Of a stretch of DNA of 51,522 nucleotides, positions 3,807 to 48,368 are shown in pieces. The notes beneath the pieces are model-generated. The model was not told the DNA's origin. It saw only the letters and a program-made list of their open reading frames with translations, and searched no databases. This DNA is from a virus (taxonomy: Duplodnaviria > Caudoviricetes): positions 1-51,522 of IMG/VR virus record IMGVR_UViG_3300048851_000132; one strand, 5' to 3'. The first letter of the stretch is position 1; each line of letters opens with the position of its first letter. Both the position numbers and the translations under genes were made by a program.

Positions 3807-4406
3807 TCAGACGTACTGGAACAGCAGGATGGTGTGGGCCGGGGCGACCGAGCGCAGCTCGCACTCCAGCACCGCGTTGCCCCAGGAGCGGAAGCGCTCG
3901 CCGAGGCCGCTCTGGCCCAGGCGGAAAGGCCGCACCGTGGTGGCCGGCGCGCGGATGGCCCAGGCATGCGCCCAGGCTGCATGCCGCATGCGGTTGCCCA
4001 TGCGCATGGTGCCCAGGCGGGAGGGCGCGTACTGCCGGATGCTGACGGTGTAGCCGAGCTGGGCGGCGCGCTCGATGAAGTAGGCGGGCGTCTGGCCGCC
4101 GCGCGCGGTCAGCCGGGCCACCACCTGGCCACGCCGCTGCTGCAGCGTGGGCGCGGGGCCGGCGCAGGGGTCGGGCAGGCCGAGGGCGGCTTCCCATTCG
4201 GGCAGCAGCTCGTAGGCGGCGGCCGGAAAGGCATCCACCAGCAGGGCATCGGCGCGGGCGCGCAGGCGCGCCGCCGTGACCGCCACGCCCTGCAGGATCT
4301 GGCCCAGGGCGCTGCCGGTCTCGCGCGGCCAGACCACGCCAGGCGGCAGCAGCGCCTGCAGCGCCGTCTGGAACTCGGCCGCCGTGCGTTCAGGAGGGCT
4401 CGGCAT
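3807..4406 (-). CDS. Baseplate protein, YmfQ/DUF2313 (Mu gp48-like)
   Basis: LLPPG..WP, ELLPEWE..LGLPD.C and final PAHT..F.Y motifs, plus gene order. Confidence 0.9.
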   Translation of the reverse strand: MPSPPERTAAEFQTALQALLPPGVVWPRETGSALGQILQGVAVTAARLRARADALLVDAFPAAAYELLPEWEAALGLPDPCAGPAPTLQQRRGQVVARLTARGGQTPAYFIERAAQLGYTVSIRQYAPSRLGTMRMGNRMRHAAWAHAWAIRAPATTVRPFRLGQSGLGERFRSWGNAVLECELRSVAPAHTILLFQYV

Positions 4407-23988: not shown

Positions 23989-24628
23989 AAGGGGTCATCG
24001 CCTCGACGACTTTGGCCGCGTCCAGGCCCAGGTCGGCTGCCAGAAGCGGCCCGATCTTTGTTGGCCAATTGGTCCAGGCGTCGCGCCATTGCCGCGCCGC
24101 CTCGAACAGCACGTTTTCGGCCAGGGCCAGCTCGATCAAGGCGCCGGCGCGCTTCTGGGCATCGAGCGCCTGCTTCAGGGCCAGGGCGGCCGCCTTCACG
24201 CGCTCGGAGGTGGCGAGCGCTGGGAAGTCGCCGCTCAGCACCCGGCGGGCGAATTCGTCGAAGTCGATGCTTTCGCCGTCTTCGCCCTCACCCTCGGCGG
24301 CGCGGCGGCGCTTCAGGGCGCCACCATGCGGCTGGCCTTCCAGCGCCTCCTGGGGCCCGCCAGGTGCGGACACCGGCGGGGTGCTGGTGCGGACAGTAGG
24401 TGCGGACATGTCCGCACGCATGTCCGCAGCCGTGTCCGCACGCCGGTTGGCCTTGCGCCAGCCGGTGCCGACCAGCGCGGGCGGCAGCTTCCCATCGGGG
24501 AAAGGGGTGAGATATCCGCCACTTATGGCGCGGCGGATGATCTTGTCGCTGACGCCTTCGCGGCGGGCAAACTCGCGAATGGAGATGCCGTCCGCAGCGG
24601 GTGCGGACACTGCGGACACTGCGGACAT
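23927..24628 (-). CDS. Terminase small subunit
   Basis: N-terminal HTH (SIREFARREGVS...IRRAI..G) and RDAW..WP motif. Directly upstream of TerL. Confidence 0.85.
   Translation of the reverse strand: MSAVSAVSAPAADGISIREFARREGVSDKIIRRAISGGYLTPFPDGKLPPALVGTGWRKANRRADTAADMRADMSAPTVRTSTPPVSAPGGPQEALEGQPHGGALKRRRAAEGEGEDGESIDFDEFARRVLSGDFPALATSERVKAAALALKQALDAQKRAGALIELALAENVLFEAARQWRDAWTNWPTKIGPLLAADLGLDAAKVVEAMTPYVHQQLVRLGEPKPTAFTED
24365..24627. repeat. Cluster of TGCGGACA direct/inverted repeats (candidate cosB-like TerS binding sites)
   Basis: TGCGGACA at 24365, 24388, 24401, 24602, 24611, 24620. Inverse TGTCCGCA at 24409, 24421, 24433, with a 1-mismatch copy at 24589. Confidence 0.7.
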
Positions 24629-24654
24629 GATTTCATACCCCGTAGCTGGAGGTG

Positions 24655-24704
24655 GGCGGGGGGGCGAATTGTCCCGCAGGCCCCTACCCCCCGAGGAAGG
24701 ACCC
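24655..24704 (-). other. Predicted cos site (cosQ + cosN)
   Basis: Minus-strand GGGTCCT (24704-24698) is identical to lambda cosQ and lies ~70 bp upstream of terS. By lambda spacing the nick falls near 24678 (TGCGGGACAATTCGC). Confidence 0.7.
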
Positions 24705-24794
24705 AAGAAGGGGGGGCCTGCCCTGTCAGCTAAGGTAATGAGAGGTGGCAGGAGGGATGGATGACAGCTGAGCACAGCTGGAGCACCGGCTCCC

Positions 24795-25001
24795 GGCCTG
24801 CCATTCCACCGCAGCGGTACGAAGCACCGGCCGCCTGCCCGGCCTGGATCTACAACAACCGCAATCGCGTTGAGCGGCTCTGGGCGAGGCTGAAGGAATG
24901 GCGCGCCGTCGCCACGCGCAATGAGAAAACCGCCCGATCCTTCCTCGGCGTCCTCTGCCTGGCCGCCCTGCTCGATTGGCTTAAGAGCTAACGGACCCTA
25001 G
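24795..25001 (+). mobile_element. IS5-family (IS427-like) transposase 3' remnant
   Basis: Y.NRNRVERLWARLKEWRAVATR.EKTARSFLG...LAA..DW is the IS5 C-terminus. No N-terminal part is present. Confidence 0.88.
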
Positions 25002-27098: not shown

Positions 27099-27457
27099 CA
27101 GCGGACCTCCAGCATGGTGTAGGCCTTGCGACCTTCCTTGCCGGGCATATGCTTCCCGACCATGGAGCGCGTGATCTTCGGCCCCACCGTCTCCGGCAGC
27201 TCGGCCACGTCGGTGCGCGTCAGCACATGCGTGCCGGCATAGGCGACGGACGCATCGCCCATCGCCTGCAGCAGCACCGGCTTGATCTCCTTGAGCCGCT
27301 TCTCCAGCCGGTTCTTCTCTGGCGCGGCCTTGGCGTACTCGGCGGCCAGCTTCACCAGCGCCGGGTCGGTGATGACCGGATAGTTGGTGCCGGCGGGCGC
27401 CGCCGGCGCCGGATCCGCCGCGGCCTTCTTGGCGCGCGGCTTCGGGGTGGTGACCAT
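27098..27457 (-). CDS. Hypothetical phage protein
   Basis: 119 aa, coupled to the recombinase gene. Confidence 0.7.
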   Translation of the reverse strand: MVTTPKPRAKKAAADPAPAAPAGTNYPVITDPALVKLAAEYAKAAPEKNRLEKRLKEIKPVLLQAMGDASVAYAGTHVLTRTDVAELPETVGPKITRSMVGKHMPGKEGRKAYTMLEVR

Positions 27458-28173
27458 CAGGCGGAAGTCCTCTTCAGGATGCGGGCCACCTGCACGGGGT
27501 GCCAGACGTCACCGCCGGCAGGTGTGCGGATGCCGCGCGCGGTCAGCGCCTCGGCGATCTGCGAGTGGTTGGCGCAGCCGGCCTTCCGCGCCGCCAGGAT
27601 GGCGGGCAGCACATCGCGGGCGTGCTGCGCGGCCTTGGCGACGCGGATCTCGGTGGCCTGGCTGACGGCAGCGCCGTCGCCGGCGCGGAGCTTCGGGTTG
27701 CCGAGCTTCACGCCGCGCGCCTTGGCCGCCTGCAAGGCAGCCCTGGTGCGCGCCGAGATCATCTCGCGCTCATGCTCGGCGACGGCGGCCAGGATGTGGA
27801 TGGTGAGGCGGCTGGCATGCGGGTTGTCGCAAGCGACGAACTCGATGCCGGCTTCCATCAGGTTGGAGACGAAGGCGACGTTGCGGGCCAGCCGATCCAG
27901 CTTGGCGATCACCAGCGTGGCGCGGCGCGACCGGCAGGCGGCGATGGCCGCGAGGATCTGGGGGCGGTCATTCTTCTTGCCGCTCTCCACCTCCCGGAAC
28001 ACGTCCAGGATGCGACCGCCGGCGGCGCGCACATGGCGCTCAACCGCCTCTTGCTGGGCCTCTAATCCGAGGCCGCTGGCGCCCTGCTTGTCGGTGGAGA
28101 CGCGGTAGTAGGCGACGAACCCCGGAACGCCGTCCCCGCCCCCCAGCCTCTTCAGCGGGGTTTTGCGGGCCAT
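27457..28173 (-). CDS. Serine recombinase (resolvase/invertase family) 1
   Basis: YYRVSTDKQG.SGLGLEAQ, E.ESG, KLDRLAR, ERE.IS.RT..AL..AKARG..LGNP motifs. Confidence 0.95.
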   Translation of the reverse strand: MARKTPLKRLGGGDGVPGFVAYYRVSTDKQGASGLGLEAQQEAVERHVRAAGGRILDVFREVESGKKNDRPQILAAIAACRSRRATLVIAKLDRLARNVAFVSNLMEAGIEFVACDNPHASRLTIHILAAVAEHEREMISARTRAALQAAKARGVKLGNPKLRAGDGAAVSQATEIRVAKAAQHARDVLPAILAARKAGCANHSQIAEALTARGIRTPAGGDVWHPVQVARILKRTSA

Positions 28174-30067: not shown

Positions 30068-31153
30068 TTAGGCGCACTGCCGGGCCGGCTCGGCCACCTG
30101 CAGCATGATCCCTCGGCACTCCGGCAGCAGCGCCCGGCAGGCCCCCTCGATCTGCGGCTTGAAGCGGCCCGCCACGTGGTCGCGATGGAAGCGGCCCGGG
30201 GCGGCGATCAGGGCATAGCCTTCCTCGACCCCCAGCAGCACCAGGCGGCTCAGCCAGGCGCGGTATTCCGCTGTCTCGATCTGCTGCCGCAGAGCGGCAT
30301 GCACCCCGCACCACGCGGCGTTGAGGCTGGCGATCTCGCAGGCCGGGGCCGCCGCCTCGGCTGGCTCGGCCGCTGCCGACGTCGCACTGGCCGCCGGGGC
30401 TGATCCCGTCACCCCAGCCCGCTCGGCGTTCTCGTCGCACCAGATCCGCCAGCGGGCCGAGACGTCGGCCAGCGGACGGCCGGAGGCGAGGAAGTGGTCC
30501 CGGAAGCGGCGGGCGACCGGCTTGGGATCCAGTCCGAGGCTGCGGGCGTAGTTCCGGTCCTCCTCCGATGGCTGCCAATCCCGATCTAGGGGGCGGGGGG
30601 TCGCGCGCGCCTGCGCGCCCTCCCCCCTGGTGGTTCTTTGGTGGTTCTCTGGTGGTTGGGGTGCAGATGGCGCACCGAAAACTGACGAAATTTGCACCGC
30701 TGAAACCACGGAATTTGCACCGCAATCGGGCGCTTCATCGACTGCTGGCTTGGGTGCGCCATTTGCACCACAAGCAGATGAAGTGACAGGTACTTCAGAA
30801 GCTTCCTGCTGCAAGCGATGTTTTTTATAAGCCCGACGCGCGCTGCGGGTCTGCGGTGCAGACGGCGCACCCAAAAGCGGCTTGGTCAGGTTCAGGTGGC
30901 GGTTCAGCCGGTAGCGCGAGGATGTGCGATGGCGGCGCATGACGACGATCAGCCCCATCTCCTCCAGCACCGCCAGGGCATCCAGCACGGCGCGCTTCGA
31001 CAGGCTGGTGCAGTCGCTGAGCGTCTCCACCGAAGGCCAGCACTCGTCCCGCTCGTCAGCGAAGTCCGCCAGCTCGCGCAGCACGCTGCGCGGTGACGGC
31101 TTGATCCGGGTCCGGTGCATGCCCTTGACCCAATTCATGCAGGGGATGCTCAT
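30068..31153 (-). CDS. Phage replication initiator (N-terminal HTH, C-terminal DnaA_N-like domain)
   Basis: VL..LAD.AD...CWPS..TL...T.LS.R.V..AL..LE..GLI winged HTH. C-terminal W..V...LR..I....Y..W...L..AP..F..D.V. Confidence 0.85.
   Translation of the reverse strand: MSIPCMNWVKGMHRTRIKPSPRSVLRELADFADERDECWPSVETLSDCTSLSKRAVLDALAVLEEMGLIVVMRRHRTSSRYRLNRHLNLTKPLLGAPSAPQTRSARRAYKKHRLQQEASEVPVTSSACGANGAPKPAVDEAPDCGANSVVSAVQISSVFGAPSAPQPPENHQRTTRGEGAQARATPRPLDRDWQPSEEDRNYARSLGLDPKPVARRFRDHFLASGRPLADVSARWRIWCDENAERAGVTGSAPAASATSAAAEPAEAAAPACEIASLNAAWCGVHAALRQQIETAEYRAWLSRLVLLGVEEGYALIAAPGRFHRDHVAGRFKPQIEGACRALLPECRGIMLQVAEPARQCA
30660..30871. repeat. Iteron-like repeats inside the initiator gene (lytic origin)
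   Basis: GGTGC-N7-GCACC palindromes at 30660, 30753, 30855, with half-sites AATTTGCACC at 30689 and 30712. Analogous to lambda ori inside gene O. Confidence 0.7.
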
Positions 31154-31325
31154 GGCCGTTATCCAGCAAGCCGCCTGCGGTCGCACACACGCGACCGCAG
31201 GAAAGACGGGAAGCAGGGAATCAGGCGCCCGCCGCCACCCTGGGGATGTGCAGGGGATGTCGCGGCGGCGGGTCGCCCCTCGCCCACACGAAGGGGGTTC
31301 GGGGGCGAGATCTCGGAAAGGGGTG

Positions 31326-31844
31326 TCATGCGGCAGCTGCGAGTTGGGAGGCGCTGGCGAGCTGCGCCGCCACGGCCGCCAGCACATCCTCGGACTGGGC
31401 ATGCAGCTCCAGCGTCTCACGCTGGATCTGGACCAGGTCTTCGGCGCACAGGCGGCCATCGGCGAGCCCATCGGCGAAGACCCGGGCCACATCGGCGCTC
31501 TCGGCCGCCAACTCCGCCAGCTCCCGCACCACACACTGGCCGGCGCCCAGATCGGGCTGCACCAGCGCCAGGCCATGGAGGCGCGCCAGCTCGGCGGTGA
31601 CCAGCTGGGCACCAGCGACACGTTCCAGCCGCACGATCAGATCCGGCGGCAGAAACTGCTGGCAATTCGGATTCTGGTAGTTGGAAAGCTGCGAGCGCCG
31701 CACGCGGCGGCCGCCATCCGTGCGCAACACTGCGACCGTTGCTTCCAGGCCGCCCAGGCGCTCGATCAGCTGCCGCGTGGCGCCCTTCAGGGCGCGGGCT
31801 TCGGCCTCAGCGCGCTGCGCCAGGTCATGTGAATTGCCGGTCAT
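31326..31844 (-). CDS. CII-like regulatory protein
   Basis: LK.ATR.LI...GG, LS.Y..P....F.P.D...LE...G...VT..LA and LADG motifs. Lies downstream of cro. Confidence 0.7.
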   Translation of the reverse strand: MTGNSHDLAQRAEAEARALKGATRQLIERLGGLEATVAVLRTDGGRRVRRSQLSNYQNPNCQQFLPPDLIVRLERVAGAQLVTAELARLHGLALVQPDLGAGQCVVRELAELAAESADVARVFADGLADGRLCAEDLVQIQRETLELHAQSEDVLAAVAAQLASASQLAAAA

Positions 31845-36198: not shown

Positions 36199-36357
36199 GA
36201 TGCCTGTTCCCAGCCCAATCAGGTTAATGCACGGCGATGCACGGCCGCGACCCGAGGCAAGGGAGGCATCTGCTGTTTATCACAGCACGAGCCGAGGGAA
36301 TACATCATACCAGAAGGGTGAAAACCCATGGGAACTCGCGTCCGAAAGGCGAACACC

Positions 36358-36666
36358 ATGAGCGTGATAGAAGAGGTCGCTGCCGAGCGGCGCCGCCAGA
36401 TCGAAGCTGAAGGCTGGACGCCCGAGCATGACGACCAGCATGCGGATGGGCAGATGGCCAAGGCTGCGGCCTGCTATGCAGCCACTGGCGCGATCCCTCC
36501 CGAGAAGCTGACAGCCAAGGCTGGGGACCTGATGACACGGACTTGGCCGTGGGAGCGGAGCTGGTGGAAGCCGCGCGGTGGCCGCAAGGATCTAGTCCGC
36601 GCAGCGGCGCTGATCGTCGCCGAGATCGAGCGGCTGGACCGAGCTGCCGCCCGCAACTCGCCATAA
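36358..36666 (+). CDS. Conserved phage protein of unknown function
   Basis: AERRRQI..EGWTPEHDD.H..G..A.AAACYA..WPW...WWKP..R.DLVRAAALI.AEIERLDR is a widespread phage motif. Confidence 0.88.
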   Translation: MSVIEEVAAERRRQIEAEGWTPEHDDQHADGQMAKAAACYAATGAIPPEKLTAKAGDLMTRTWPWERSWWKPRGGRKDLVRAAALIVAEIERLDRAAARNSP

Positions 36667-36708: not shown

Positions 36709-37308
36709 ATGAAGATCGGATACATGCGGGAGAGCGCGGCGGGCCCGTCATTGGCAGAGCAGCAGGCCCTGCTGCGCCTGGCCGGCATCGAGGACTTTAG
36801 CAGGCACGCCCCGGTCTATACCGACCGCCGCCGCAAGGGTCCGACCGCCACGACACCAGAGCGCGATGCCATGGTGCGCATCCTGCGGCCGGGTGATGTG
36901 GTGATCATCGCGAAGGCCACGCGCCTCGGCACCAGCCGGGCCGACGTGCTGAAGGCCATGGCCGCCATCACGGCGCGTGGCGCGGCGATCCATGACGCCG
37001 AGGTCGGGCAGGATGTGCAGCTGCACCCCGACGCCGTGCCGGCCATCGCCTTTGCCGATCGGGCGGAGAGTGGCGCCAAGCGGGAACAGGCCGCGAGGAT
37101 GCATGTCCGGAAGGTGGCGCTGGGCGTGACCGGCGGCCGGCCGGAGCGGCTGCAGGGCAACACGAAGGCGGCCGCCGCGGCGGCCTGGGCAGATCTCACC
37201 AAGACCGTCCAGCAGGTGGCGGTCGAGTTCAACGTAGGGGCACGGACACTCTATCGGCTGTTCGGGCCGAAGGGCACGCCCCGCTTTGGCAAGAAGGCTC
37301 AACCATGA
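36709..37308 (+). CDS. Serine recombinase 2 (Pin/Hin-like with C-terminal HTH)
   Basis: MKIGYMRES, LRPGD.V.I....RLG and GGRP hinge, plus a C-terminal HTH (VA.EFNVG.RTLYR). Confidence 0.9.
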   Translation: MKIGYMRESAAGPSLAEQQALLRLAGIEDFSRHAPVYTDRRRKGPTATTPERDAMVRILRPGDVVIIAKATRLGTSRADVLKAMAAITARGAAIHDAEVGQDVQLHPDAVPAIAFADRAESGAKREQAARMHVRKVALGVTGGRPERLQGNTKAAAAAAWADLTKTVQQVAVEFNVGARTLYRLFGPKGTPRFGKKAQP

Positions 37309-37607
37309 GCGAACAACAGACGGCCCGGCAGTTTCCCACCCGGCGGCTTCAATCCCGATCACTGAGGGCAGGGCCTAGGACGTCATCTCAGGAGAGCGGA
37401 TGACTTCGTTGCTGCGGGCCGAACTCGAAACCGGCTGCCTGAAGGAAGCACTCCAAAGGAGTGCCCTGTACCGTCAGATGGTGCCCCCGCGTGTCCTTCC
37501 ACGCCGCCGCAGCCAGAGGATCATAGCACGGGTGCGCTCACCCCCTGCACAAGATTACGACAGTCCCAAAATCCGGCTCCTGATCCAGCGAATGAAGGAC
37601 AGACGGT

Positions 37608-37847
37608 ATGAGTGACCAACAAACGGCCGCGAACTGCGGCAAGCGCAAGCCTTCGCCAGAGTACTGGTGGGCTGAGGAGATCCAATCCGGAAAGGTCATG
37701 CCAGTAGAAGTCATCAGAGAGCAGTCAGATGGGGTCAACGACAGCGTCGTTATGATCGGAGATGAGGGCAAGTGGGATGTGAAGTTCTACAGGCTGATCG
37801 AACAGCTGCACCCGCCCGGCCGGAAGGCGGTGGCAGATGAGCGATGA
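37608..37847 (+). CDS. Hypothetical protein (array ORF, MSDQQTA start)
   Basis: 79 aa with an RBS. Its stop overlaps the next array motif. Confidence 0.7.
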   Translation: MSDQQTAANCGKRKPSPEYWWAEEIQSGKVMPVEVIREQSDGVNDSVVMIGDEGKWDVKFYRLIEQLHPPGRKAVADER

Positions 37848-37986
37848 AACGGCCGCCCAGCCCGCACCATGCAGATGGTGCAGTAGCCGAGGCTAGTACT
37901 GGGCTGCCGGACCAGGCGAGCGGTACCAGGAGCGGTGCGACGTGTGCCTGCCGCCCGAGACGGAGGAAAGCCGCGATGGCCAATGA
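37837..37986 (+). pseudogene. Small CxxC..CxxC Zn-finger ORF with in-frame TAG
   Basis: Translates MSDETAAQPAPCRWCSSRG*YWAAGPGERYQERCDVCLPPETEESRDGQ*. Confidence 0.5.
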
Positions 37987-38020
37987 TCCTCAAACGGCCG
38001 AGATAATGAGGCCGGATTAC

Positions 38021-38212
38021 CTATTCTGCGCCAGAATTACGGGCCTTCCATAGACGGTACTCCGGCTGGAGTTTAAGTGTAACGTAGATGATGAGGATCA
38101 CTAGCAGCGTCAGCATTGTTATAAACAAGGAGGCGGGCATACTCAGGCGGTTCATTATCAAATTCAGGAAGATAAAAACCGCAAATCCCGCACATATCTT
38201 CGCTGAAAGCAC
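38021..38212 (-). CDS. Small AT-rich membrane protein
   Basis: Two hydrophobic helices, low GC, antisense within the array. Confidence 0.55.
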   Translation of the reverse strand: MLSAKICAGFAVFIFLNLIMNRLSMPASLFITMLTLLVILIIYVTLKLQPEYRLWKARNSGAE

Positions 38213-38331
38213 AACTATCTCTCCAATGATTCACTTATGACGCGCCAAGTTAAATAGAAGCTTGGGAATAAGCTACCAGGTTACTTCTGCTTGGCAACGA
38301 CAGAAGCAGAAGCGCACTACTGGAGAGCCGC

Positions 38332-38529
38332 ATGATATATGACCAGCAAACAGCCGAGCCGACCGCCTCTTCCCCGCGCGAGGTCTTGGTCCGCGTCAGG
38401 GCTGCGCTGAGGACCTGCCTTTTGGACGCACCCGGAGACCTCGCCCGGCCCGAGCGCCGGTCTGTGCTAGAACGCCGTATCGCCGAGTGCTCGCACGCGA
38501 TCGCACAGATGGGTGCCGCCCATGGCTGA
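38332..38529 (+). CDS. Hypothetical protein (array ORF)
   Basis: 65 aa with a GGAG RBS and MIYDQQTA start. Confidence 0.6.
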   Translation: MIYDQQTAEPTASSPREVLVRVRAALRTCLLDAPGDLARPERRSVLERRIAECSHAIAQMGAAHG

Positions 38530-38739
38530 ACAGCAGATGGCCTACCCTGAGGATGCGGAGGAGCACGCAAGCGCATTGGAAGAGGCGGTGTATGCGCAAC
38601 CCTCCCCGCCCACCGTAGCGACCATTGCCAACGAACTCGGCTGGCCAGCCCCTGGCCGTGGCTGAGGCCGTAGGGGCTCATTACTGGATGTTCCTGAGCG
38701 GAGACCTGTCCAGCCCGGAGACCACCAGGATCGAAACTG

Positions 38740-39051
38740 ATGGCGAGTGATCAGCAAACGACGGCCTGCCCTGGGTGCGATGACGCTGGGCACTTCGCTG
38801 CGTTCGTTGACCGAGAAGATAAAGGGCACTTCGACCCTGCTCTGCGCTGCTTCCTCTGCGGCGGTTCGGGGCGCGTCAGCGCCCAGACTGCGGAATGGCA
38901 CGCGCGAGGCCGGGCATTGAGGGACGCACGCCGCTCGCGGGGCGAGAGCGTCTTCGACCTGGCGAAGCGACTGGGCCTGAGCTCCTCCCAAGTCAGCGCC
39001 ATGGAGGTCGGCCTCGCTGACTCCTCACCTTTGGAGGTCGCTGATGACTGA
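38740..39051 (+). CDS. Zn-finger + XRE-HTH protein (array ORF)
   Basis: CPGC..G and CFLCGGSG followed by GRALRDAR..RG.S..DLAKRLGLS..VSAME.G. Confidence 0.8.
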   Translation: MASDQQTTACPGCDDAGHFAAFVDREDKGHFDPALRCFLCGGSGRVSAQTAEWHARGRALRDARRSRGESVFDLAKRLGLSSSQVSAMEVGLADSSPLEVADD

Positions 39052-39055
39052 CCAG

Positions 39056-39134
39056 CAAACGACCCTAGATGCACAGATGGATAGATATACATCTGTATAG
39101 ATGCACATCCAACCATCTATCCGTCATTGGACCA
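39056..39134. repeat. Centromere-like array, duplicated copy
   Basis: 79 bp, 69/79 identical to 39580-39658, with 4-bp periodic GATG/ACAT/ATCT units. Confidence 0.85.
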
Positions 39135-39161
39135 TATGCGACCGAAGCAGCTGAGGCGATC

Positions 39162-39392
39162 TCAGCCTTGGCCGTAGAGAGCCAAGCGAAGAGCTTCCAC
39201 CTCATGATCAGCCAGAACGATCTGGAGGTTCTGCTTGCCAACGGTAGGGGTCTCCATGCTGGCAATTTGGCTGAGCCGCCGGATGATGATTTCAGCACCT
39301 GAGCGACCGCGGCCCGTCTGGCCTTCTAGTGCTTTCAAAGCTGACGCGCACAGCACAGCGAGATCTGCGCTGTTGATCTGAATCGTGGCCAT
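39162..39392 (-). CDS. Hypothetical protein
   Basis: 76 aa (MATIQINSAD...) with a GAGGAG RBS. Lies between the two 79-bp copies. Confidence 0.65.
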   Translation of the reverse strand: MATIQINSADLAVLCASALKALEGQTGRGRSGAEIIIRRLSQIASMETPTVGKQNLQIVLADHEVEALRLALYGQG

Positions 39393-39579
39393 CCGACTCC
39401 TCGCCCACCGTTGGACGCGCACCTGATAAGGGCGCGGCTTAAAGAACGTGGGACAGCCGAATGAGTTGGAGCCATAGGACCCGCGCAGAGACGGCAAGCA
39501 GGTCGTGGGCGTGCCAGAATCAGGGTCGGACATCCCTGCCGTTCCTGGCGAAAACCTATCGGCAGCCTGCACATATCGT

Positions 39580-39658
39580 CAAACGACCCCGGATGCACAT
39601 ATGGATGGATATACATTTGTATAGATGCACATCCATCTATCTATCCTTTACTGGACCA
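39580..39658. repeat. parS/parC-like centromere downstream of the par operon
   Basis: AT-rich 4-bp periodic repeats (GATGCACATATGGATGGATATACAT...) abutting the stop of the RHH gene. Confidence 0.75.
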
Positions 39659-39950
39659 GTTTCTTGTTCTTTGCCAACCACATATCCAACGCCTCTGAGA
39701 CGATTGCTTGCTTTTGCCGACCGGTGCGGAAGCGGTGGAGAGCCAAGGCCTCGGCCTGTTCAGCCGAGAGCTTGAAGTTCATCGAGCCAGGCCGAGACAC
39801 GGATGGAGTCAGCGCCGGGGCTGGAGCCGGCGGCGGCTCGACCGCCAGAGGCATGGGCGGAGGGTTCTCCGCCCGCTCGATGGGCGGCGGCGCATCCAGG
39901 GGCCCCTTGGCGAAGATAGCGTCGAACTTGCTGCCAGGCCGCTTGGTCAC
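39648..39950 (-). CDS. ParG-like ribbon-helix-helix centromere-binding protein
   Basis: Pro-rich flexible N-terminus and C-terminal MNFKLS.E...AL...KQAIV.EALD.WL RHH pattern. Coupled to parA. Confidence 0.8.
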   Translation of the reverse strand: MTKRPGSKFDAIFAKGPLDAPPPIERAENPPPMPLAVEPPPAPAPALTPSVSRPGSMNFKLSAEQAEALALHRFRTGRQKQAIVSEALDMWLAKNKKLVQ

Positions 39951-40543
39951 GCGGTGATCTCCTTGCCGACTGCTTCATAGGCCTCCCAGGCTCGGGCCGA
40001 GCCCTTCTCTTTTGGCACGCCACGAACGGAGACGCCGTTGCTGGCTGCGTGCTCGAAAACCTTCAGCCGCGGCACCTGCCCGGTGAACACCGGGATGCCT
40101 TGGGAGGTGAGGACCTGGCGCAGCTGCTCACCATCCGTCTCTGGCGACGGCGGAACCTTGACGAGCAGCACACGGTGCTTGCCCGGAGCCAACTCCTTGG
40201 CCGCGCGCAGAGTGTCGACGAGCACATCTGTTTCCAGGGTGGCCGGGACGGTGGGAATCACCAGCAGGTCGCAGCCCTGAGCCAGGGCCTCGAAGTCCGC
40301 CGATCCCGGACGGGCTTCAGTGTCGACGACGACGTGTGTGAAGGAGCGGGCCTTGTAGGCGCCAGCCTCGACCGGGACGACCTCGAAAGCGAAGCCACCG
40401 CGCTTGGCCCAGGCCGTGCTGGAGCGGTTCGGGTCACCATCGATCAGCAGCGTCGGAGCGAGCGTCTGCAGGTACTCTGCCAAGTGCACCGCTGTCGTCG
40501 TTTTGCCTACGCCGCCTTTGTAACTCGCGACCGTGATGTACAT
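39947..40543 (-). CDS. parA: ParA partition ATPase (type Ib)
   Basis: KGGVGKTT deviant Walker A, LLIDGDPN and VVVDT. Short, with no N-terminal HTH. Confidence 0.95.
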   Translation of the reverse strand: MYITVASYKGGVGKTTTAVHLAEYLQTLAPTLLIDGDPNRSSTAWAKRGGFAFEVVPVEAGAYKARSFTHVVVDTEARPGSADFEALAQGCDLLVIPTVPATLETDVLVDTLRAAKELAPGKHRVLLVKVPPSPETDGEQLRQVLTSQGIPVFTGQVPRLKVFEHAASNGVSVRGVPKEKGSARAWEAYEAVGKEITA

Positions 40544-40612
40544 CTGTGCGGACATCCATCCATATGTGCAGATGTACATTTACACATATGGATGTACATC
40601 TGTACATCGATA
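40535..40612. repeat. parS/operator array upstream of parA
   Basis: GATGTACAT x3 and related 4-bp periodic units, same family as 39580-39658. Confidence 0.8.
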
Positions 40613-40910: not shown

Positions 40911-41459
40911 GTGCCGATCTCACGATCACGCCCGGCGCGTGCCGGGTCTGTGCGCGTTGCCGCCTGGCAGCGCCAGCGCCTCGGCGATGCCGACCGCCGC
41001 CGCATCATGGAAGCCGCGCGCCGCCTGGAGCGGCGCAGCCACCAGCCGGGGATGCATGGCGGCGCCCTGCGCCGCACCGGCATCCTGGTGCTCTGGACGC
41101 TGCTCTATCGTGGGCCGTCGCGGCATGGGGTCTGCGATCCCAGCCTCGGCCAGCTGGCCGCCTGGTCTGGCTGCGCCCGCTCCACCGTGCAGCTCGCCCT
41201 GCAGCGCATCGAGGCCGCTGGCATCATGGGCCACGTCCGCCGTGGCCTGACGGTCGCCGGCCGCTGGTGCCAGTGGACCTCGGCCTATCTCTTCGCCAGC
41301 CCGGCGCAATGGGCCGTAAGCGATACCGAGGCTCGGTCAGCCGAAGTCTCTCAGGAGAAAAAGAAGCTTAGGGAAGAAGGCGGGGGAGGGGAGGGGAGCG
41401 CCCTGCCAGCGACCGAGCACGCCGCGCTGGCGGCGAAATGGGGAGTGGCGATGGTCTAA
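40911..41459 (+). CDS. Putative plasmid replication initiator (HTH type)
   Basis: G.L...G..VL..LL...G.CDPS...LA..SGC.RSTV..AL.R.E.AG and Q.TSAY.F resemble HTH Reps of small alphaproteobacterial plasmids. Divergent from parA. Confidence 0.7.
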   Translation: MPISRSRPARAGSVRVAAWQRQRLGDADRRRIMEAARRLERRSHQPGMHGGALRRTGILVLWTLLYRGPSRHGVCDPSLGQLAAWSGCARSTVQLALQRIEAAGIMGHVRRGLTVAGRWCQWTSAYLFASPAQWAVSDTEARSAEVSQEKKKLREEGGGGEGSALPATEHAALAAKWGVAMV

Positions 41460-41860: not shown

Positions 41861-42988
41861 ATGGCGGATAGCCTGAGTTCAGGAACGACGGATACCCTAT
41901 TTGGGAGGCAGCCACTGCAACCGATCACCAAAGGGCGCTCAATCCGGCTCTACCTCGTTGATGGCACTCCAACCGGGTTGATCACCGCAGAGATTGTGAA
42001 CTGGACAGGGCACGTGATTCTAGCGCCAAGGTCGCGCTTGGCAGACCTGCTCCAGCGCAAAGAGCCCCTACGAACAGGAGTATACTTCCTATTCGGGCCA
42101 GACCCGAACGATCCAGCACAGACGCTTCTCTATATCGGTGAAAGTGAGAATGTCGGGAAGCGTTTAACCCAGCACAATAAAGACAATGAGAAATCATTTT
42201 GGGAACGAGTATGCATCGTTACGAGTAAAGATCAAAACATTACGAAAGGGCATGGAAAATATCTTGAAAGCCGGCTGATCGAAATTGCCAAACGAGCTGG
42301 TAGAGCCAAAATTACCAATGGAACATCCCCTGAATATGGATGGTTACCGGAAGCCGATCTGGCGGATATGGAGTTCTTTCTCGAACAGGTTAAAGTTATT
42401 CTTCCTGTTCTAGGTCTTGATTTTCTGAGAGACACCGTTTTTATTAATGTTACTGCTAAGCCACAGGTGGCGAATGCTGAGGCAGCCAAAGTATCACTGG
42501 AGAGCCTTGGCTTGGTGCCACCTGCAACTACCGCGCGGCAACTAACTACAGTTCGAACGGAGCTAGGAGAAAGTCCCGTTTCCTTTCCTAAGGAAATGCC
42601 GCCAACCGTTGACCAAGATAAGCCTGTCTTCGAGATCAGGGACCTGAAATCTGACCTAGTCGCCTACGCTCAAGAGATTGCAGGCGAGATGGTGGTCCTC
42701 TCCGGCTCAAAGGCACGCATTGAAGAGGGTACTTCATTTACAACCTCACAGAAGCAACTGCGGAACAGCCTACGACAAAAGGGCATCTTGGCTGATGACC
42801 CAAACAGCTCGAACCACTACATCTTCACCGCCGACGTACCCTTCAGCAGCCCAAGTCAGGCCTCTGTCATCATCCTCGGACGATCAGACAATGGCCGCCT
42901 GTCCTGGCGAACCATGAACGGGGGAATGACCTACCAGAAGTGGCAGGAGGATCAGATCAGCAAGCTTCCTTCCAGTACTTCAGAGTAG
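41861..42988 (+). CDS. GIY-YIG nuclease fused to DUF4357 (RAMA-like) domain
   Basis: GVYFL...YIGESENV..RL.QH, YLE..LI and C-terminal VL.GS.A..F..D..F.SPS.A...I.GRS.NG..W. Confidence 0.9.
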   Translation: MADSLSSGTTDTLFGRQPLQPITKGRSIRLYLVDGTPTGLITAEIVNWTGHVILAPRSRLADLLQRKEPLRTGVYFLFGPDPNDPAQTLLYIGESENVGKRLTQHNKDNEKSFWERVCIVTSKDQNITKGHGKYLESRLIEIAKRAGRAKITNGTSPEYGWLPEADLADMEFFLEQVKVILPVLGLDFLRDTVFINVTAKPQVANAEAAKVSLESLGLVPPATTARQLTTVRTELGESPVSFPKEMPPTVDQDKPVFEIRDLKSDLVAYAQEIAGEMVVLSGSKARIEEGTSFTTSQKQLRNSLRQKGILADDPNSSNHYIFTADVPFSSPSQASVIILGRSDNGRLSWRTMNGGMTYQKWQEDQISKLPSSTSE

Positions 42989-43743: not shown

Positions 43744-43959
43744 ATCTGGTTCTGCTTGCTCCCTTCCACGCTGGCTGTCTGGCCAGCGCCGGTCCGATCA
43801 GGGCCTGTCACCAGTTAGGGCGTTCACCACGCCGCCGCAGTGCGCATGGTGTAGCAGGCCCTGCTTAACGCCCGGTAAAGGCAGCGCCGCTTTTCTGCGC
43901 GACGCAGGATGGCACGCCCCCGTCTCGGTAGCTGGCTGGCCACCCGCTATGCTCCGCCC

Positions 43960-44649
43960 ATGCTGATGCTCTTCCGCCGCCTGCTGCTGGCCGCCCTGCT
44001 GCTCACCACCGCGCCCGCCCTCGCCGCCGATCTTCTCGGACAGGTGGTGGGCATCCAGGATGGCGACACCCTGACCCTGCTAACGCCGAAGCACCGGCAG
44101 GTGCGGGTACGCCTCTACGGCATTGATGCCCCGGAGAGCCGACAGCCCTACGGCACCCGGGCGCAGCAGGAGCTCTCGGCATTGGCCTTCCGCCAGCAGG
44201 TCCGCGTGACGGTGGAAGACACCGACCAGTACGGCCGCACCGTCGGCCGGGACTGGGCCGGATCGCTCGACGTCAATGCCGAGTTGATCCGCCGTGGCGC
44301 TGCCTGGGTCTATCGCCAGTACAACCGTGATCCGGCGCTACTGCCGCTTGAGGCGGAGGCCCGTCAGGCCAGGCGCGGCCTCTGGGCTATGCCGGCCAGC
44401 GAGCAGGTGCCGCCCTGGGTCTGGCGGCGGAACGGCGGCCGGGCGACCGCGACCCCGCAGCCATCAGCAGCGGGAAGGGCAGGGGCTACGGCGCCATCCG
44501 GTAGTACCGCCGGCCTAAGTTGCGGCAGCAAGCGCTCCTGCACCCAGATGAGCAGCTGCGCCGAGGCGCAGTTCTACTTCCGCCAATGCGGCCTGAGCCG
44601 GCTGGATGGCGACCGTGATGGGGTGCCGTGCGAGCGGCTGTGCCGCTGA
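43960..44649 (+). CDS. Secreted thermonuclease (SNase) with Excalibur domain
   Basis: Signal peptide, DGDT, RLYGIDAPE, D.YGR and A...RGLW motifs, with C-terminal LDGDRDGVPCE. Confidence 0.95.
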   Translation: MLMLFRRLLLAALLLTTAPALAADLLGQVVGIQDGDTLTLLTPKHRQVRVRLYGIDAPESRQPYGTRAQQELSALAFRQQVRVTVEDTDQYGRTVGRDWAGSLDVNAELIRRGAAWVYRQYNRDPALLPLEAEARQARRGLWAMPASEQVPPWVWRRNGGRATATPQPSAAGRAGATAPSGSTAGLSCGSKRSCTQMSSCAEAQFYFRQCGLSRLDGDRDGVPCERLCR

Positions 44650-45190: not shown

Positions 45191-45850
45191 ATGAGCGCCA
45201 AAGAAGCTCCCGACGCTGGTAAGGACCTGCTGTCCAGCGTTAGCAACAAGACCTTTAAGACCATACTTGCAGACCCGCCGTGGCAGTTCATCAACCGCAC
45301 CGGAAAGGTCGCACCGGAGCACCGCAGGCTGGCGCGGTATGGCACAATGGACCTTCCGGCAATCTGTGCCCTTCCTGTAGAGAGGATCGCGGCGTCTACG
45401 GCTCACCTCTATCTGTGGGTGCCGAACGCGCTTCTGCCCGACGGTCTGCAGGTCATGAAGGCGTGGGGCTTCACCTACAAGGCGAACATCGTTTGGCGGA
45501 AAATCCGCAAGGATGGCGGTAGCGATGGGCGTGGCGTGGGCTTCTATTTCCGCAACGTCACGGAGATTCTGCTCTTCGGCACGCGCGGAAAGAATGCTCG
45601 GACGCTTCAGCGCGGACGGACGCAGGTGAATTACCTCGAAACCCGCAAGCGCGAACACAGCCGGAAACCGGACGAGATTTACGAGATCATCGAGGCATGC
45701 AGCCCAGGCCCGCGGATCGAGCTGTTCGCTCGTGGCGTGCTGCCCGGCTGGACATCATGGGGCAATCAGGCCGACGAGAGCTATGAGCCGACATGGGACA
45801 CCTATGCCCATAACTCGGCATCCCAGCGCCGGCTGATAGCGGCGGAGTAG
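45191..45850 (+). CDS. MT-A70 family N6-adenine methyltransferase
   Basis: ILADPPW, HLYLW, WGF.Y, EHSRKP and ELFAR motifs. Confidence 0.95.
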   Translation: MSAKEAPDAGKDLLSSVSNKTFKTILADPPWQFINRTGKVAPEHRRLARYGTMDLPAICALPVERIAASTAHLYLWVPNALLPDGLQVMKAWGFTYKANIVWRKIRKDGGSDGRGVGFYFRNVTEILLFGTRGKNARTLQRGRTQVNYLETRKREHSRKPDEIYEIIEACSPGPRIELFARGVLPGWTSWGNQADESYEPTWDTYAHNSASQRRLIAAE

Positions 45851-46618
45851 TTATTCTTCGCTCTCGTCGTCGCCCTCGTCGTCGCTGCCAGCGTCGAGGG
45901 GGACGGCTCCCGCTGTTTTCTTGCCTTTGGCCTTCCGCTTGGCATCGCGCTCAGCCTTAGCGGCGAACGCAGCAGCCAAGGCATCAGGACCATCATCGAC
46001 ATAGAGCTTGGGCGAGATCGCAAAAGTCAGTACCGGACAACCGCCACCCCCTCCGCCCTCAAGACGTGGCCATAGGCGGTTGTGATGGGTCGTAGTCGCG
46101 CCGTAACTCTTACCCTTCCCCAAACTATTGAAAATGCCCTGCAGGTCCCAAGATCGGGTTATGATGACGCCAACGTCTATAGTCCGAAGTTCAAACAAAA
46201 GACGAAAATTGTTAAGGTCGCGATCAAAAAATGGGTCTTTGTTATTCCATTCAAGTTCAAGAGCTACCCGACCCTTAAAGCAATCAACGAGATGTGTGGG
46301 ACTGTTATACTTATATTTATCGGTGAATGCGGTCTTTTTCTTACGCTCAGACCCTTCTTTGATCGAGATCGTTGTTTGAAATCCCTTCTCTTCCCAGCCG
46401 CGCGAATCGAACGCGGCGTTGATGCCTTTCGAGATGGGCGAGAGACCTTCTCCGGCGGTCAGAACCTCCGATTTGAGAAGGCGGAAATTGCGTAGGACTT
46501 CAACGATATCTGTCCATTCCGACGGGCATGCAGTCTGCAGTATGCCCGTTGCATTGCGCCATTCTTTGACCTGGTAGAGGTCGCGAAGATCTTCAGGGAT
46601 CAGGTGTTCAGTCGCCAT
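45851..46618 (-). CDS. BglII/BstYI-family type II restriction endonuclease
   Basis: H.VD..K.RVALE.EWNNKDPF.DRDL..F PD-(D/E)xK-like motif. Convergent with the MTase. Confidence 0.9.
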   Translation of the reverse strand: MATEHLIPEDLRDLYQVKEWRNATGILQTACPSEWTDIVEVLRNFRLLKSEVLTAGEGLSPISKGINAAFDSRGWEEKGFQTTISIKEGSERKKKTAFTDKYKYNSPTHLVDCFKGRVALELEWNNKDPFFDRDLNNFRLLFELRTIDVGVIITRSWDLQGIFNSLGKGKSYGATTTHHNRLWPRLEGGGGGGCPVLTFAISPKLYVDDGPDALAAAFAAKAERDAKRKAKGKKTAGAVPLDAGSDDEGDDESEE

Positions 46619-46731
46619 GATGGCAGAGTGCATCCCTGGCGCGGATTTTGCTACCCTGAGTCGTAATGAGCGAGTTTAAAAAGGCGAGGTGCAGCGGCGC
46701 TTCAGTCAGAAGCATGTCCGCTTCGTCTCAC

Positions 46732-47234: not shown

Positions 47235-48368
47235 ATGACGATTATGCAGAATGTTAGCGTTGATCCGCCAGGTGTTTACATCAAAGCTGAGATAGATGCG
47301 CGAGGGTGGACACAGCGAGACTTAGCTTTCATCCTTGGGCAAACTGAGCAACAGCTTAGCCCGCTTTTGTCTGGGAAGAGGGCCATTACTCCAGACATGG
47401 CGCGGTTGCTCGGGGACGCTTTCGATATGCCAGCGCAGTTTTTTGCAAACCTGCAAAGTCTCTACGACTTGGCAAATGCGAAGCAGCCCGACCCAGCAGT
47501 GCGTACTCGTGCTATACTACAGGCTACCTATCCAGTTCGCGATATGATACGCCGCGGCTGGATCGAGGACGGTGAAGCATCACTTCTGCAACTTCAAATC
47601 GACCGATTTTTCGAAGTTGCGAACGATGACGTTTCAGGAAAAAGAGTGTCGTTCGCTGCCAAGAGAGCCAGCTATGATGAGACGCCTCCTCATCAGCTAG
47701 CTTGGGTATTCCGTGTTCGCCAATTGGCAAGGCAAGTTGATGTGGCGCCGTTTTTTGCCGAAAAATTGCGTTCTTCTCTGGTGCGTCTTAAGCATCTTAT
47801 GGTTGACGTAGAAGCTGTTCAAGAAGTTCCAGTAATATTGGCTGAGGCAGGCGTTAGGTTCGTACTCGTTGAAACACTGCCTAATGCGAAGATCGATGGG
47901 GTTTGCACTTGGCTTGGAGAGAACTCGCCAGTTATAGGAATGTCAACTCTATACGACAGAGTTGATAATTTCTGGTTTGTTCTTCGTCATGAGATTGAGC
48001 ATGTCCTAAGAGGACATGGGAAGTCATCTGCTGTCGGCATCATTGATCACCTTGTCGGAGATGCTGCTTCTGAAGACCAGAATGTGGATGAAGAAGAGAG
48101 AGTTGCAAATTTTGCAGCAGCAGATTTTTGCGTTCCTAAGCAGAAGATGGACTCATTCTATGCCAGAAAGCACCCTTATTTTTCAGAAAGAGATGTGATT
48201 GGCTTTGCATCTCTCATGCAGATCCACCCAGGCATAGCGGTTGGGCAGCTTCAACGCAGATTAGGCCGCTATGATTACCTGCGGAAATACCAAGTCCCTA
48301 TCAGGAGGCATGTGTTGGAACATGCTTTGGTAGATGGCTGGGGGCAAGTGGCAAACTCTGATCTCTAA
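47235..48368 (+). CDS. HigA-like HTH fused to ImmA/IrrE metallopeptidase
   Basis: PPG.YIK.E...RGWTQ.DLA..GKR.IT..MA..L HTH, followed by IDG and DNFWF.LRHEIEH (HExxH). Confidence 0.92.
   Translation: MTIMQNVSVDPPGVYIKAEIDARGWTQRDLAFILGQTEQQLSPLLSGKRAITPDMARLLGDAFDMPAQFFANLQSLYDLANAKQPDPAVRTRAILQATYPVRDMIRRGWIEDGEASLLQLQIDRFFEVANDDVSGKRVSFAAKRASYDETPPHQLAWVFRVRQLARQVDVAPFFAEKLRSSLVRLKHLMVDVEAVQEVPVILAEAGVRFVLVETLPNAKIDGVCTWLGENSPVIGMSTLYDRVDNFWFVLRHEIEHVLRGHGKSSAVGIIDHLVGDAASEDQNVDEEERVANFAAADFCVPKQKMDSFYARKHPYFSERDVIGFASLMQIHPGIAVGQLQRRLGRYDYLRKYQVPIRRHVLEHALVDGWGQVANSDL

Follow-up and report, generated by a model that had tools for sequence, protein, structure and literature searches.

A short translated repeat at the gene junctions of a variable accessory-gene array in a Caudoviricetes genome record

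The described systems closest to the gene array considered here are the start-associated sequences (SAS/ESAS) of Cluster K mycobacteriophages and the regulatory PeSL cassettes of T4-type phages. The array lies in the IMG/VR virus record IMGVR_UViG_3300048851_000132 (Duplodnaviria; Caudoviricetes), whose whole length of 51,522 nucleotides was analysed and is called the window below (W in lists of loci); in this array, a motif of about 21 nt recurs at the starts of successive, unrelated open reading frames (ORFs). In the accessible text of PMC3203893, SAS/ESAS are described as short asymmetric repeats of unknown function at a fixed short distance from gene starts, SAS being placed 3–7 bp upstream of the start and containing the Shine-Dalgarno core. 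As far as that text goes, the motif of the window resembles SAS in its single orientation, in its association with non-structural genes of different families, in its occasional overlap with an upstream stop codon and in its near-absence from the host. It differs from SAS as presented there in two respects: the motif begins at the ATG, runs to +21 and is translated as a seven-residue leader, whereas SAS occupy the position of the ribosome-binding site (RBS) upstream, and the motif coincides with breakpoints between related genomes. The PeSL elements, in the accessible portions of PMC2839356 and PMC4122927, are intergenic and consist of promoter and terminator stem-loops, and recombination between them is the explanation given for the insertions, deletions and replacements that set close relatives apart (PMC2839356). 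Judging by those portions, the likeness lies in repeats placed between small non-essential ORFs of hyperplastic regions and in differences between relatives that are bounded by repeats. In contrast to PeSL as described there, the motif is a coding, in-frame stop/start/leader without promoter, terminator or stem-loop, and mini-circles belong to PeSL, whereas the present array is known from sequences and contigs. In the literature searched on serine-recombinase and integron-like cassettes, start-associated sequences, modular shuffling, downstream boxes and phage-plasmids (supplementary material lay outside the scope), no description was found of the motif, of an in-frame cassette array or of a repeat translated as stop, start and leader at cassette junctions.

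The motif ATG-NNT-GAY-CNN-CAAACGRCC opens eight consecutive ORFs between 37305 and 39044 and recurs once without an ATG (39580), with spacings of 303, 229, 139, 356, 190, 218, 304 and 525 nt; it was seen nowhere else in the 51.5-kb record. Since the TGA stop of the upstream ORF is embedded in the block, as ATGNNTGA or an 11-nt variant, each junction consists of the stop of gene n, the start of gene n+1 and the first 6–7 codons of the latter (M-x-D-Q/P-Q-T-A), ending in the core CAAACGRCC. A purine-rich RBS-like stretch precedes seven of the eight starts and is weak at 38522. In an alignment of 31 rows, four of them anchored a few bases off, the information content was high from ATG to GCC and about zero from the next base onward; upstream of the ATG only generic RBS-like purine richness was visible, and no dyad or second half-site was found in the motif. 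The degenerate 12-mer CARCARAYGRCS gave five matches against 0.36 expected, and the 15-mer GACCAGCAAACGGCC, with up to three mismatches, gave 11 against 2.74 expected, neither count being reached by any of 100 shuffles; seven of these 11 lie on the plus strand within 37311–39064. The exact CAAACGRCC was found four times (0.77 expected), always within 37620–39588, a number reached by one shuffle in 100. The units between the motifs vary in G+C and orientation, with minus-strand ORFs at 38021–38212 (low G+C) and 39162–39392, and several motif-led ORFs of the window are stubs of 18–32 aa.

The original prediction, made from these letters alone, had described eight consecutive ORFs opening with nearly identical DNA, and their coordinates and sequences were all confirmed, the shuffle controls excluding chance. 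The ninth, start-less copy that it listed is present as CGTCAAACGACC at 39577–39588, and its further observations, that similarity ends directly after the core and that the units differ in G+C, orientation and intactness, agree with the data given above. It had also proposed that each unit ends in an RBS, an ATG, about six codons and a recombination half-site of the hix/gix type. Of this, the RBS and the ATG stood, together with the upstream stop and a leader of about seven codons; the half-site is not supported, since the motif has neither a dyad nor a second half-site.

The motif belongs to a group of soil phages and is not confined to this genome: at least 11 related loci have it too, at the starts of ORFs that are different and unrelated. 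The resolvase-like protein encoded immediately before the array, referred to as recombinase 2, is 90–97% identical in three viral contigs (L001–L003), 75% identical in a metagenome contig (L019), 73% in a scaffold of P. wenyumeiae (L008) and 47% in L038, and in all six loci motif-led ORFs follow 3′ of the recombinase gene, but the genes are different. Two further contigs of the bacterial genome to which L008 belongs (L042 and L045) hold arrays too, and three to five consecutive motif-like starts were found in the more distant phages L048, L056 and L085. In L038, the most distant lineage, the core differs and reads ...AAAACCACC twice. The L056 array begins directly after an unrelated gene, the stop of which is overlapped by the first motif. 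That of L085 comes after an ORF resembling a phage integrase (judged from its translation only), and its genes are not stop/start-overlapped. One RBS-led motif copy is common to L055, L059 and L067. No clear arrays were found in L051–L054, relatives recognised through a Rep-like protein, so the array is not universal in this phage group. A motif scan of viral contigs gave two matches outside the known relatives that looked like chance, and another gave 17 stretches, 13 of them new; most of these were single, without an RBS or from low-G+C contigs, while the array in L056 is real. In the phage-plasmid-like members, the window included, the array has the early genes on one side and the partition locus on the other.

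The original prediction had raised a motif equally common at host gene starts as an objection; this was not seen, as a 16-nt pattern matched a 6.1-Mb host-type genome (G001) four times, in arrays in every case, and its reversed control did not match at all. Among 80 unrelated control phage loci (783 kb) with the same upstream gene family, clustered copies occurred in only two, and these loci together with the shuffle controls ruled out chance or low complexity as the source of the motif. A total of 37 motif-led starts from 13 sources was tabulated, one row being mis-anchored and one weak. The core is located at codon 5 in 27 of them, a TGA is embedded in 28, and 36 copies are oriented in the direction of the array. 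Stubs of at most 25 aa make up 11 of the 37 motif-led ORFs; the remainder are 32–219 aa long, many with a good coding signature, and include proteins with a Pfam DUF4326 domain (in two arrays) and an HTH-like protein. It should be added that low-G+C inserts with minus-strand genes lie inside or at the end of the arrays of some relatives (L019 8340–10700; L002 5400–6120; L047 5650–7300), and these look like separately acquired genes. A supposed DUF4326 remnant upstream of position 8800 in L008 was not confirmed.

The differences between relatives are bounded by the motif. The window is 91–94% identical to L001, L002 and L003 through the recombinase gene and diverges from them at 37315–37325, inside the first motif; homology with L002 returns at 39597, nine bases past the last (ATG-less) core. 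Between 37325 and 39597 the window has nothing in common with L001–L003, and the gene sets are wholly different. The gene content of relatives had been proposed to break at the motif, and it does so inside the first copy and, with L002, just past the last. The earlier idea of an integron-like cassette array is thus borne out in one part, namely exchangeable units joined at the motif that differ between near-identical backbones; membership in the integrons or in the serine-recombinase systems failed when tested.

Metagenome runs (X1–X4) also bear on the exchange; for all four, assembled contigs were used, and uncovered parts carry no meaning. In run X2 the dominant variant joins 37297 to 39603, and the depth of the flanks is about 4100–4400 against 227 for this array (about 385 against 29 in run X1). 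In run X4, the match of one contig of 500 nt is confined to 37613–37855, that is, one unit from motif to motif. In run X3, an RNA library, a depth of 2–3 was found over 36710–36777, 37006–37393 and 39330–39548, which could stem from carried-over DNA and does not count as a sign of expression. Units or their parts also reappear elsewhere: the first L001 cassette is found truncated in L042, DUF4326 is present in two arrays but lies at unequal distances from the tag (its first residue is 15 in L019 and 50 in L042), and part of the first unit of the window recurs inverted in L019, beside an inverted motif copy.

The ends of the arrays show a common pattern. Among the close relatives with visible array ends, in W, L001, L002, L008, L042 and L045 the last motif heads a stub of 8–25 aa running into unrelated backbone, while in L003 it heads a 72-aa ORF with a poor coding signature. 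Such terminal stubs are expected if each unit carries the start module of the next unit at its 3′ end. ATG-less copies were found in W (39580), L002 (4893) and L019 (8753), the last locus also containing the inverted copy with a stub. At the end of the array in the window, a 79-nt direct repeat of partition-site-like iterons (39056–39134 and 39580–39658, 87% identity), each copy of which starts exactly at CAAACGACC, encloses a 524-bp unit with the minus-strand 76-aa ORF.

The array resembles an integron in its co-oriented, promoterless, variable cassettes, in the junction element at each 3′ end and in a content that varies between similar backbones. In contrast to integrons, it has no adjoining IntI-type tyrosine recombinase, no recombinase is common to all arrays, no attC-like imperfect palindrome, inverse core or reverse-complement copy of the core occurs within it, and the junction lies within the reading frame and provides the start codon. 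Among the 30 window ORFs scanned with Pfam, in a scan that was not exhaustive, no tyrosine-recombinase family was found, and the gene abutting the array belongs to the Resolvase family. Invertase half-sites contain an AAAC string, and the core CAAACGRCC contains it as well. A further likeness to res site I, hix and gix is that the array begins at or just after a resolvase-family gene in seven loci, the protein being degenerate in W, L001–L003, L019 and L038 and canonical in L042. Unlike those sites, the motif copies are direct repeats without a dyad, the adjacent family is catalytically degenerate and arrays exist without a Resolvase domain.

In profile matches, gamma-delta resolvase and Gin cover recombinase 2 over its whole length; it has kept R and S, but has T and T at the positions of D67 and R71. 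Across 15 close homologues the nucleophile position falls short of invariance and even of near-invariance; Ser is replaced by Cys in L019 and by Asp in L038, both of which still bear arrays. A profile search of 1.84 billion representatives gave 49 at E ≤1e-30 and 299 at ≤1e-10. The 45 best full-length representatives were compared in a MAFFT alignment (columns set on the L042 enzyme; 130 of 147 sequences kept by length): Ser is present in 21, D67 in 6, R68 in 22 and R71 in 5, and the residues found in place of the nucleophile are Thr, Asp, Ala, Met, Gly and others. This pattern suggests a clade of pseudo-recombinases that have lost catalysis. The catalytic positions being so widely lost, some function besides catalysis would have preserved the protein, DNA binding being the simplest candidate. 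Most likely, recombinase 2 survives as a DNA-binding remnant of a resolvase, in a regulatory or architectural role, and is not the catalyst. The family (P0024–P0169) is sizeable and consists of small resolvase-like proteins whose N-terminus is typically GYIRxSKAGPSxxEQ.

Arrays also occur independently of such proteins. Three records that CheckV rates as 100% complete, G402 (L056), G404 (L048) and G413 (L085), carry motif-led arrays and have no PF00239 match, and G405 (L001, 100% complete) encodes the degenerate protein only. A serine recombinase as the driver of the array, as originally predicted, is not supported; against it stand these three records and a family without the D67/R71 equivalents and often without the nucleophile Ser. 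In L042, a canonical Hin-like recombinase (221–859) stands in the genomic slot of the degenerate one and likewise adjoins the array; we read this as conservation of genome position, and it keeps a site-specific explanation alive.

The motif is conserved as nucleotides, not as a peptide. CAA was used at the Gln position of the motif in 26 of 37 codons, compared with 5.8% of the 379 Gln codons in 29 window genes, and ACG at the Thr position in 25 of 37, compared with 32% of the 488 Thr codons in the same genes. Non-synonymous variants of the Gln codon (GAA, AAA, CGA and CCC) number six and the synonymous CAG five. The start codon is followed directly by an A/C-rich stretch within a genome of 67% G+C. 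Seven of the eight start regions fold no better than their shuffles (z from +0.09 to +1.64; full range −0.50 to +1.64), as expected for open initiation regions, and structured RNA was rejected as a candidate, no fold or stem-loop being common to the motif start regions. A search of Rfam returned nothing above the gathering score, only sub-threshold miRNA-like matches on the partition repeats. No promoter-like site was found, and there were three terminator-like sites against 3.4 expected, none of them at the plus-strand junctions. The duplex with 16S rRNA was no better than chance (−16.5 kcal/mol against −16.7 ± 2.1 for shuffled sequences, 100 of 200 shuffles being as good), and the best reverse-complement 16S match of the core has two mismatches; the 16S rRNA was taken from the same-genus genome L152, the G001 assembly having no 16S gene. 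The leader of T7 gene 10 is a translational enhancer of the downstream-box type. With such enhancers and with the A/C-rich ones, among which ACA motifs are counted in the accessible part of PMC3879156, the motif shares an A/C-rich stretch after the ATG and start regions no more structured than shuffles. It differs from them in having no 16S complementarity beyond chance and in an exact 9-nt conservation that exceeds the need of an enhancer.

We propose, with moderate confidence, that the motif is a portable module, providing in-frame translational coupling and a leader, which marks the junctions of exchangeable accessory-gene cassettes. The proposal starts from the observed anatomy, nucleotide conservation, distribution, breakpoints at the motif and independence from resolvases; from these we infer a translational role and an exchange by short homology. 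The module would supply termination-reinitiation and an open A/C-rich start to any gene body behind it. A newly placed gene body would stay translated and coupled to its neighbour, probably via an unstructured start region or a trans-acting factor that recognises the core. Being repeated, the module would serve as an exchange point for co-infecting relatives, and recombination from motif to motif would swap, delete, invert or add units in frame; with the next start module at the 3′ end of each unit, one terminal stub would always be left. The exchange would most simply be short-homology or microhomology recombination between co-infecting relatives, with recombinase 2 as a protein that binds DNA and does not catalyse. 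Several points weigh against this proposal. Its support comes from sequence comparison and from assembled contigs, in which circles or rare joints would not show. Uninterrupted identity between copies is often only 9–15 nt, which is short for RecA-type homologous recombination, and no single-strand annealing protein or other recombination gene was recognised among the ORFs scanned with Pfam and PHROGs. At least six right-hand junctions (W, L001, L002, L008, L042, L045) fall within a few bases of the core end, which is more natural for a targeted cut than for random illegitimate events. A generic unstructured start needs no exact CAAACGRCC, and no 16S complementarity was found. Finally, some variation lies off the motif, e.g., the joint of 37349 to 37565 in run X2, and some array genes have no motif, e.g., at W 37400 and L019 ~7860.

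The short identity tracts and the clustering of these junctions near the same base are the reason why we give some weight, as a possible yet doubtful alternative, to a dedicated site-specific system, a functional analogue of the integron. In such a system a recombinase would recognise the asymmetric core and exchange strands at its 3′ edge, and circular cassettes, each made of a gene body and the next start module, would be inserted and excised; candidates for this recombinase would be the resolvase-like protein next to the array, a canonical serine recombinase (27457–28173 in the window; 221–859 in L042) or a host enzyme. The sharp end of similarity at one position in all copies, the right-hand junctions to at least six different backbones at the core end, the ATG-less copies and the inverted copy with its stub would all fit, as would the 79-nt duplication that begins exactly at CAAACGACC, the resolvase-family gene abutting the array in seven loci, with two kinds of it in the same genomic slot, and the different core of the most distant lineage, L038. 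However, the complete array records without PF00239, a fourth with the degenerate protein only, a nucleophile changed to Cys or Asp, the rarity of D67 and R71 equivalents (6 and 5 of 45) and a motif with no dyad, second half-site or inverse core all speak against such a system. Excision products were not seen either, although assembled contigs could not have revealed them. The same doubtful standing covers a variant in which temperate phages and phage-plasmids would capture genes in frame without an integrase: an asymmetric core of 9–21 nt would be cut or exchanged at its 3′ edge by an enzyme that is host-encoded or guided by the degenerate resolvase-like protein, and start-less bodies would be inserted, excised, inverted, reshuffled and automatically translated. 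In function, this would be an independently evolved counterpart of the integron.

A purely regulatory start-associated sequence, whose modularity would be a by-product, seems unlikely to us. Here the core would be bound by one trans-acting factor, be it an RNA-binding protein of phage or host origin, a small RNA or, acting on DNA, the resolvase-like helix-turn-helix (HTH) protein, comparable to the targets of T4 RegA and to mycobacteriophage SAS. This would account for the fixed register to the starts, the single orientation (36 of 37), the conservation at the nucleotide level, the absence from the host genome outside arrays and the persistence of the motif in the distant phage L085 without stop/start overlap, and SAS, as far as described in the accessible text of PMC3203893, offer a precedent. 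It leaves unexplained the terminal stubs, the ATG-less copies and the breakpoints at the motif. Besides, the minus strand of the window has no convincing motif match that could encode an antisense RNA, the start regions have no common RNA structure or Rfam match above the gathering score, and a protein shared by every array-bearing phage was not found. It is highly improbable that the seven-residue N-terminal peptide M-x-D-Q-Q-T-A is itself functional as a targeting, packaging or degradation tag, even though it is common to unrelated proteins, including the DUF4326 and HTH proteins. The internal proteins of T4 bear a capsid-targeting leader, which would be an analogy. The codon statistics given above ruled the peptide tag out as a candidate: synonymous sites are equally conserved, amino-acid-changing variants are as frequent as CAG, and 11 of 37 motif-led ORFs encode at most 25 aa.

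The features of the window are listed in Table 1.

Table 1. Positions of the array units and of selected neighbouring genes in the window
Feature	Position	Strand	Basis
Recombinase 1, canonical small serine recombinase	27457–28173	-	Pfam Resolvase 4e-31; PHROG 'DNA invertase' 2.8e-36
Replication-initiator-like protein	30068–31621	-	Profile matches
Recombinase 2, 199-aa resolvase-like protein with catalytic domain and C-terminal HTH; stop overlaps the first motif	36709–37308	+	Pfam Resolvase 5e-11
Motif copy 1, ATGAGCGAACAACAGACGGCC; heads a 32-aa ORF (37305–37403); homology with L001, L002 and L003 ends here	37305–37325	+	
71-aa ORF without motif inside unit 1	37400–37615	+	
Motif copy 2 (37608–37628); heads a 79-aa ORFan; 8-nt ATGAGTGA stop/start overlap with the upstream ORF	37608–37847	+	
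Motif copy 3, shortened ATGAGCGATGAAACGGCC; heads a 19-aa stub	37837–37896	+	
Motif copy 4, ATGGCCAATGATCCTCAAACGGCC; heads a 25-aa stub entering low-G+C DNA	37976–38053	+	
63-aa hydrophobic ORF within low-G+C unit 4	38021–38212	-	
Motif copy 5 (38332–38355); heads a 65-aa ORF	38332–38529	+	
Motif copy 6, ATGGCTGAACAGCAGATGGCC; heads a 47-aa ORF (to 38665)	38522–38750	+	
Motif copy 7 (38740–38763); heads a 103-aa protein with Zn-ribbon-like N-terminus and weak HTH match	38740–39051	+	
Motif copy 8, ATGACTGACCAGCAAACGACC; heads an 18-aa terminal stub entering partition-site-like repeats	39044–39100	+	
76-aa ORF inside unit 8, no family match; present in other contigs of runs X1 and X2	39162–39392	-	
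ATG-less motif copy, CGTCAAACGACC	39577–39588	+	
Partition module bounding the array	39592–40607	-	Pfam CbiA/ParA families; repeats D1 and I1
Iteron-like repeats flanking ParA on both sides	39592–39658 and 40535–40607		Repeat search
100-aa ORF of the partition module	39648–39950	-	
ParA	39947–40579	-	Pfam CbiA/ParA families
Rep-like HTH_36 protein	40911–41459		Pfam

Some array units deserve a comment. The 103-aa protein matched Pfam HTH_31 and HTH_25 at 1e-4, under the curated cut-offs. In a word-indexed, length-limited search of 5.8 billion proteins, it had one homologue, though more may exist (P0022, 67% identity, which retains a tag-like DPPTA), and the 79-aa protein had none, which is not proof of absence. 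In unit 6, two overlapping frames (38522–38665 and 38625–38750) jointly span the unit, the second reaching the next start; a frameshift in the gene or an error in sequencing may account for this. An element of about 45 nt within the motif-less 71-aa ORF of unit 1 (37488–37530) is common to the window and, in inverted form, to L019 9041–9080, in otherwise unrelated array units, and consists of a small hairpin GCGTG-TCCTTC-CACGC followed by CGCCGCAGC...ATCATAGCA. A 131-nt stretch (37410–37540) is also found in a 1341-nt contig of run X4, where it is deeper than its surroundings. The iterons beyond parA (40535–40607) are arranged as a palindrome on the far side.

Beyond the array, the virus record is 51.5 kb as a whole with about 67% G+C. 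The minus strand of 0–29 kb presumably holds structural and tail genes, judging from coding signature and ORF sizes only, and the plus strand holds the early or plasmid-like region. The best inverted repeat found when invertase sites of recombinase 1 were sought has 27-nt arms that are 81% complementary (23846–23872 with 24838–24864, 965 nt apart) and lies near large, tail-fibre-sized ORFs; the region 23846–24864 may be an invertible host-range segment, or the repeat may be due to chance. The 112-aa protein at 36328–36666 aligns with the C-terminal portion of numerous PHROG families that are far longer than itself and of unassigned function. It is carried by more than 587 viral contigs, making it a very common phage domain, and it stands immediately upstream of the array in L056. 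Just past the Rep-like gene, a GIY-YIG/DUF4357 protein (41861–42988) and a secreted-type protein with staphylococcal-nuclease and Excalibur domains (43909–44649) are encoded in that order. An MT-A70 methyltransferase (45191–45850, plus strand, 8e-31) adjoins a BglII-like restriction endonuclease (45851–46633, minus strand, 5e-38), and the two are likely a restriction-modification pair. This pair edges a low-G+C island (about 51%) at 46–49 kb, which contains a protein with HTH and M78-peptidase domains (47235–48368).

Among annotated plasmids and phages, no close DNA relative of the window was found except at the 36.3–36.7-kb gene. The homologues of recombinase 2 carry the names Teichococcus/Pseudoroseomonas wenyumeiae, and L008 sits on a 36.8-kb scaffold of P. 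wenyumeiae. Based on these names and this scaffold, the host probably belongs to the Acetobacteraceae, in the Roseomonas/Pseudoroseomonas group.

Turnover of anti-defence and host-takeover genes is fastest in the accessory regions of phages, yet little is understood of the way in which new genes enter these regions and come to be expressed. In the present arrays, a single short element gives a stop, a start and a leader to any gene body behind it, and the same element coincides with the exchange points between co-occurring strains. In addition, a resolvase-like family apparently without catalysis is exposed as a sizeable group. If the motif is a translation module, it would offer an experimentally simple handle on start-associated sequences, which are otherwise unexplained. 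If it is a recombination site, it would represent a new cassette system.

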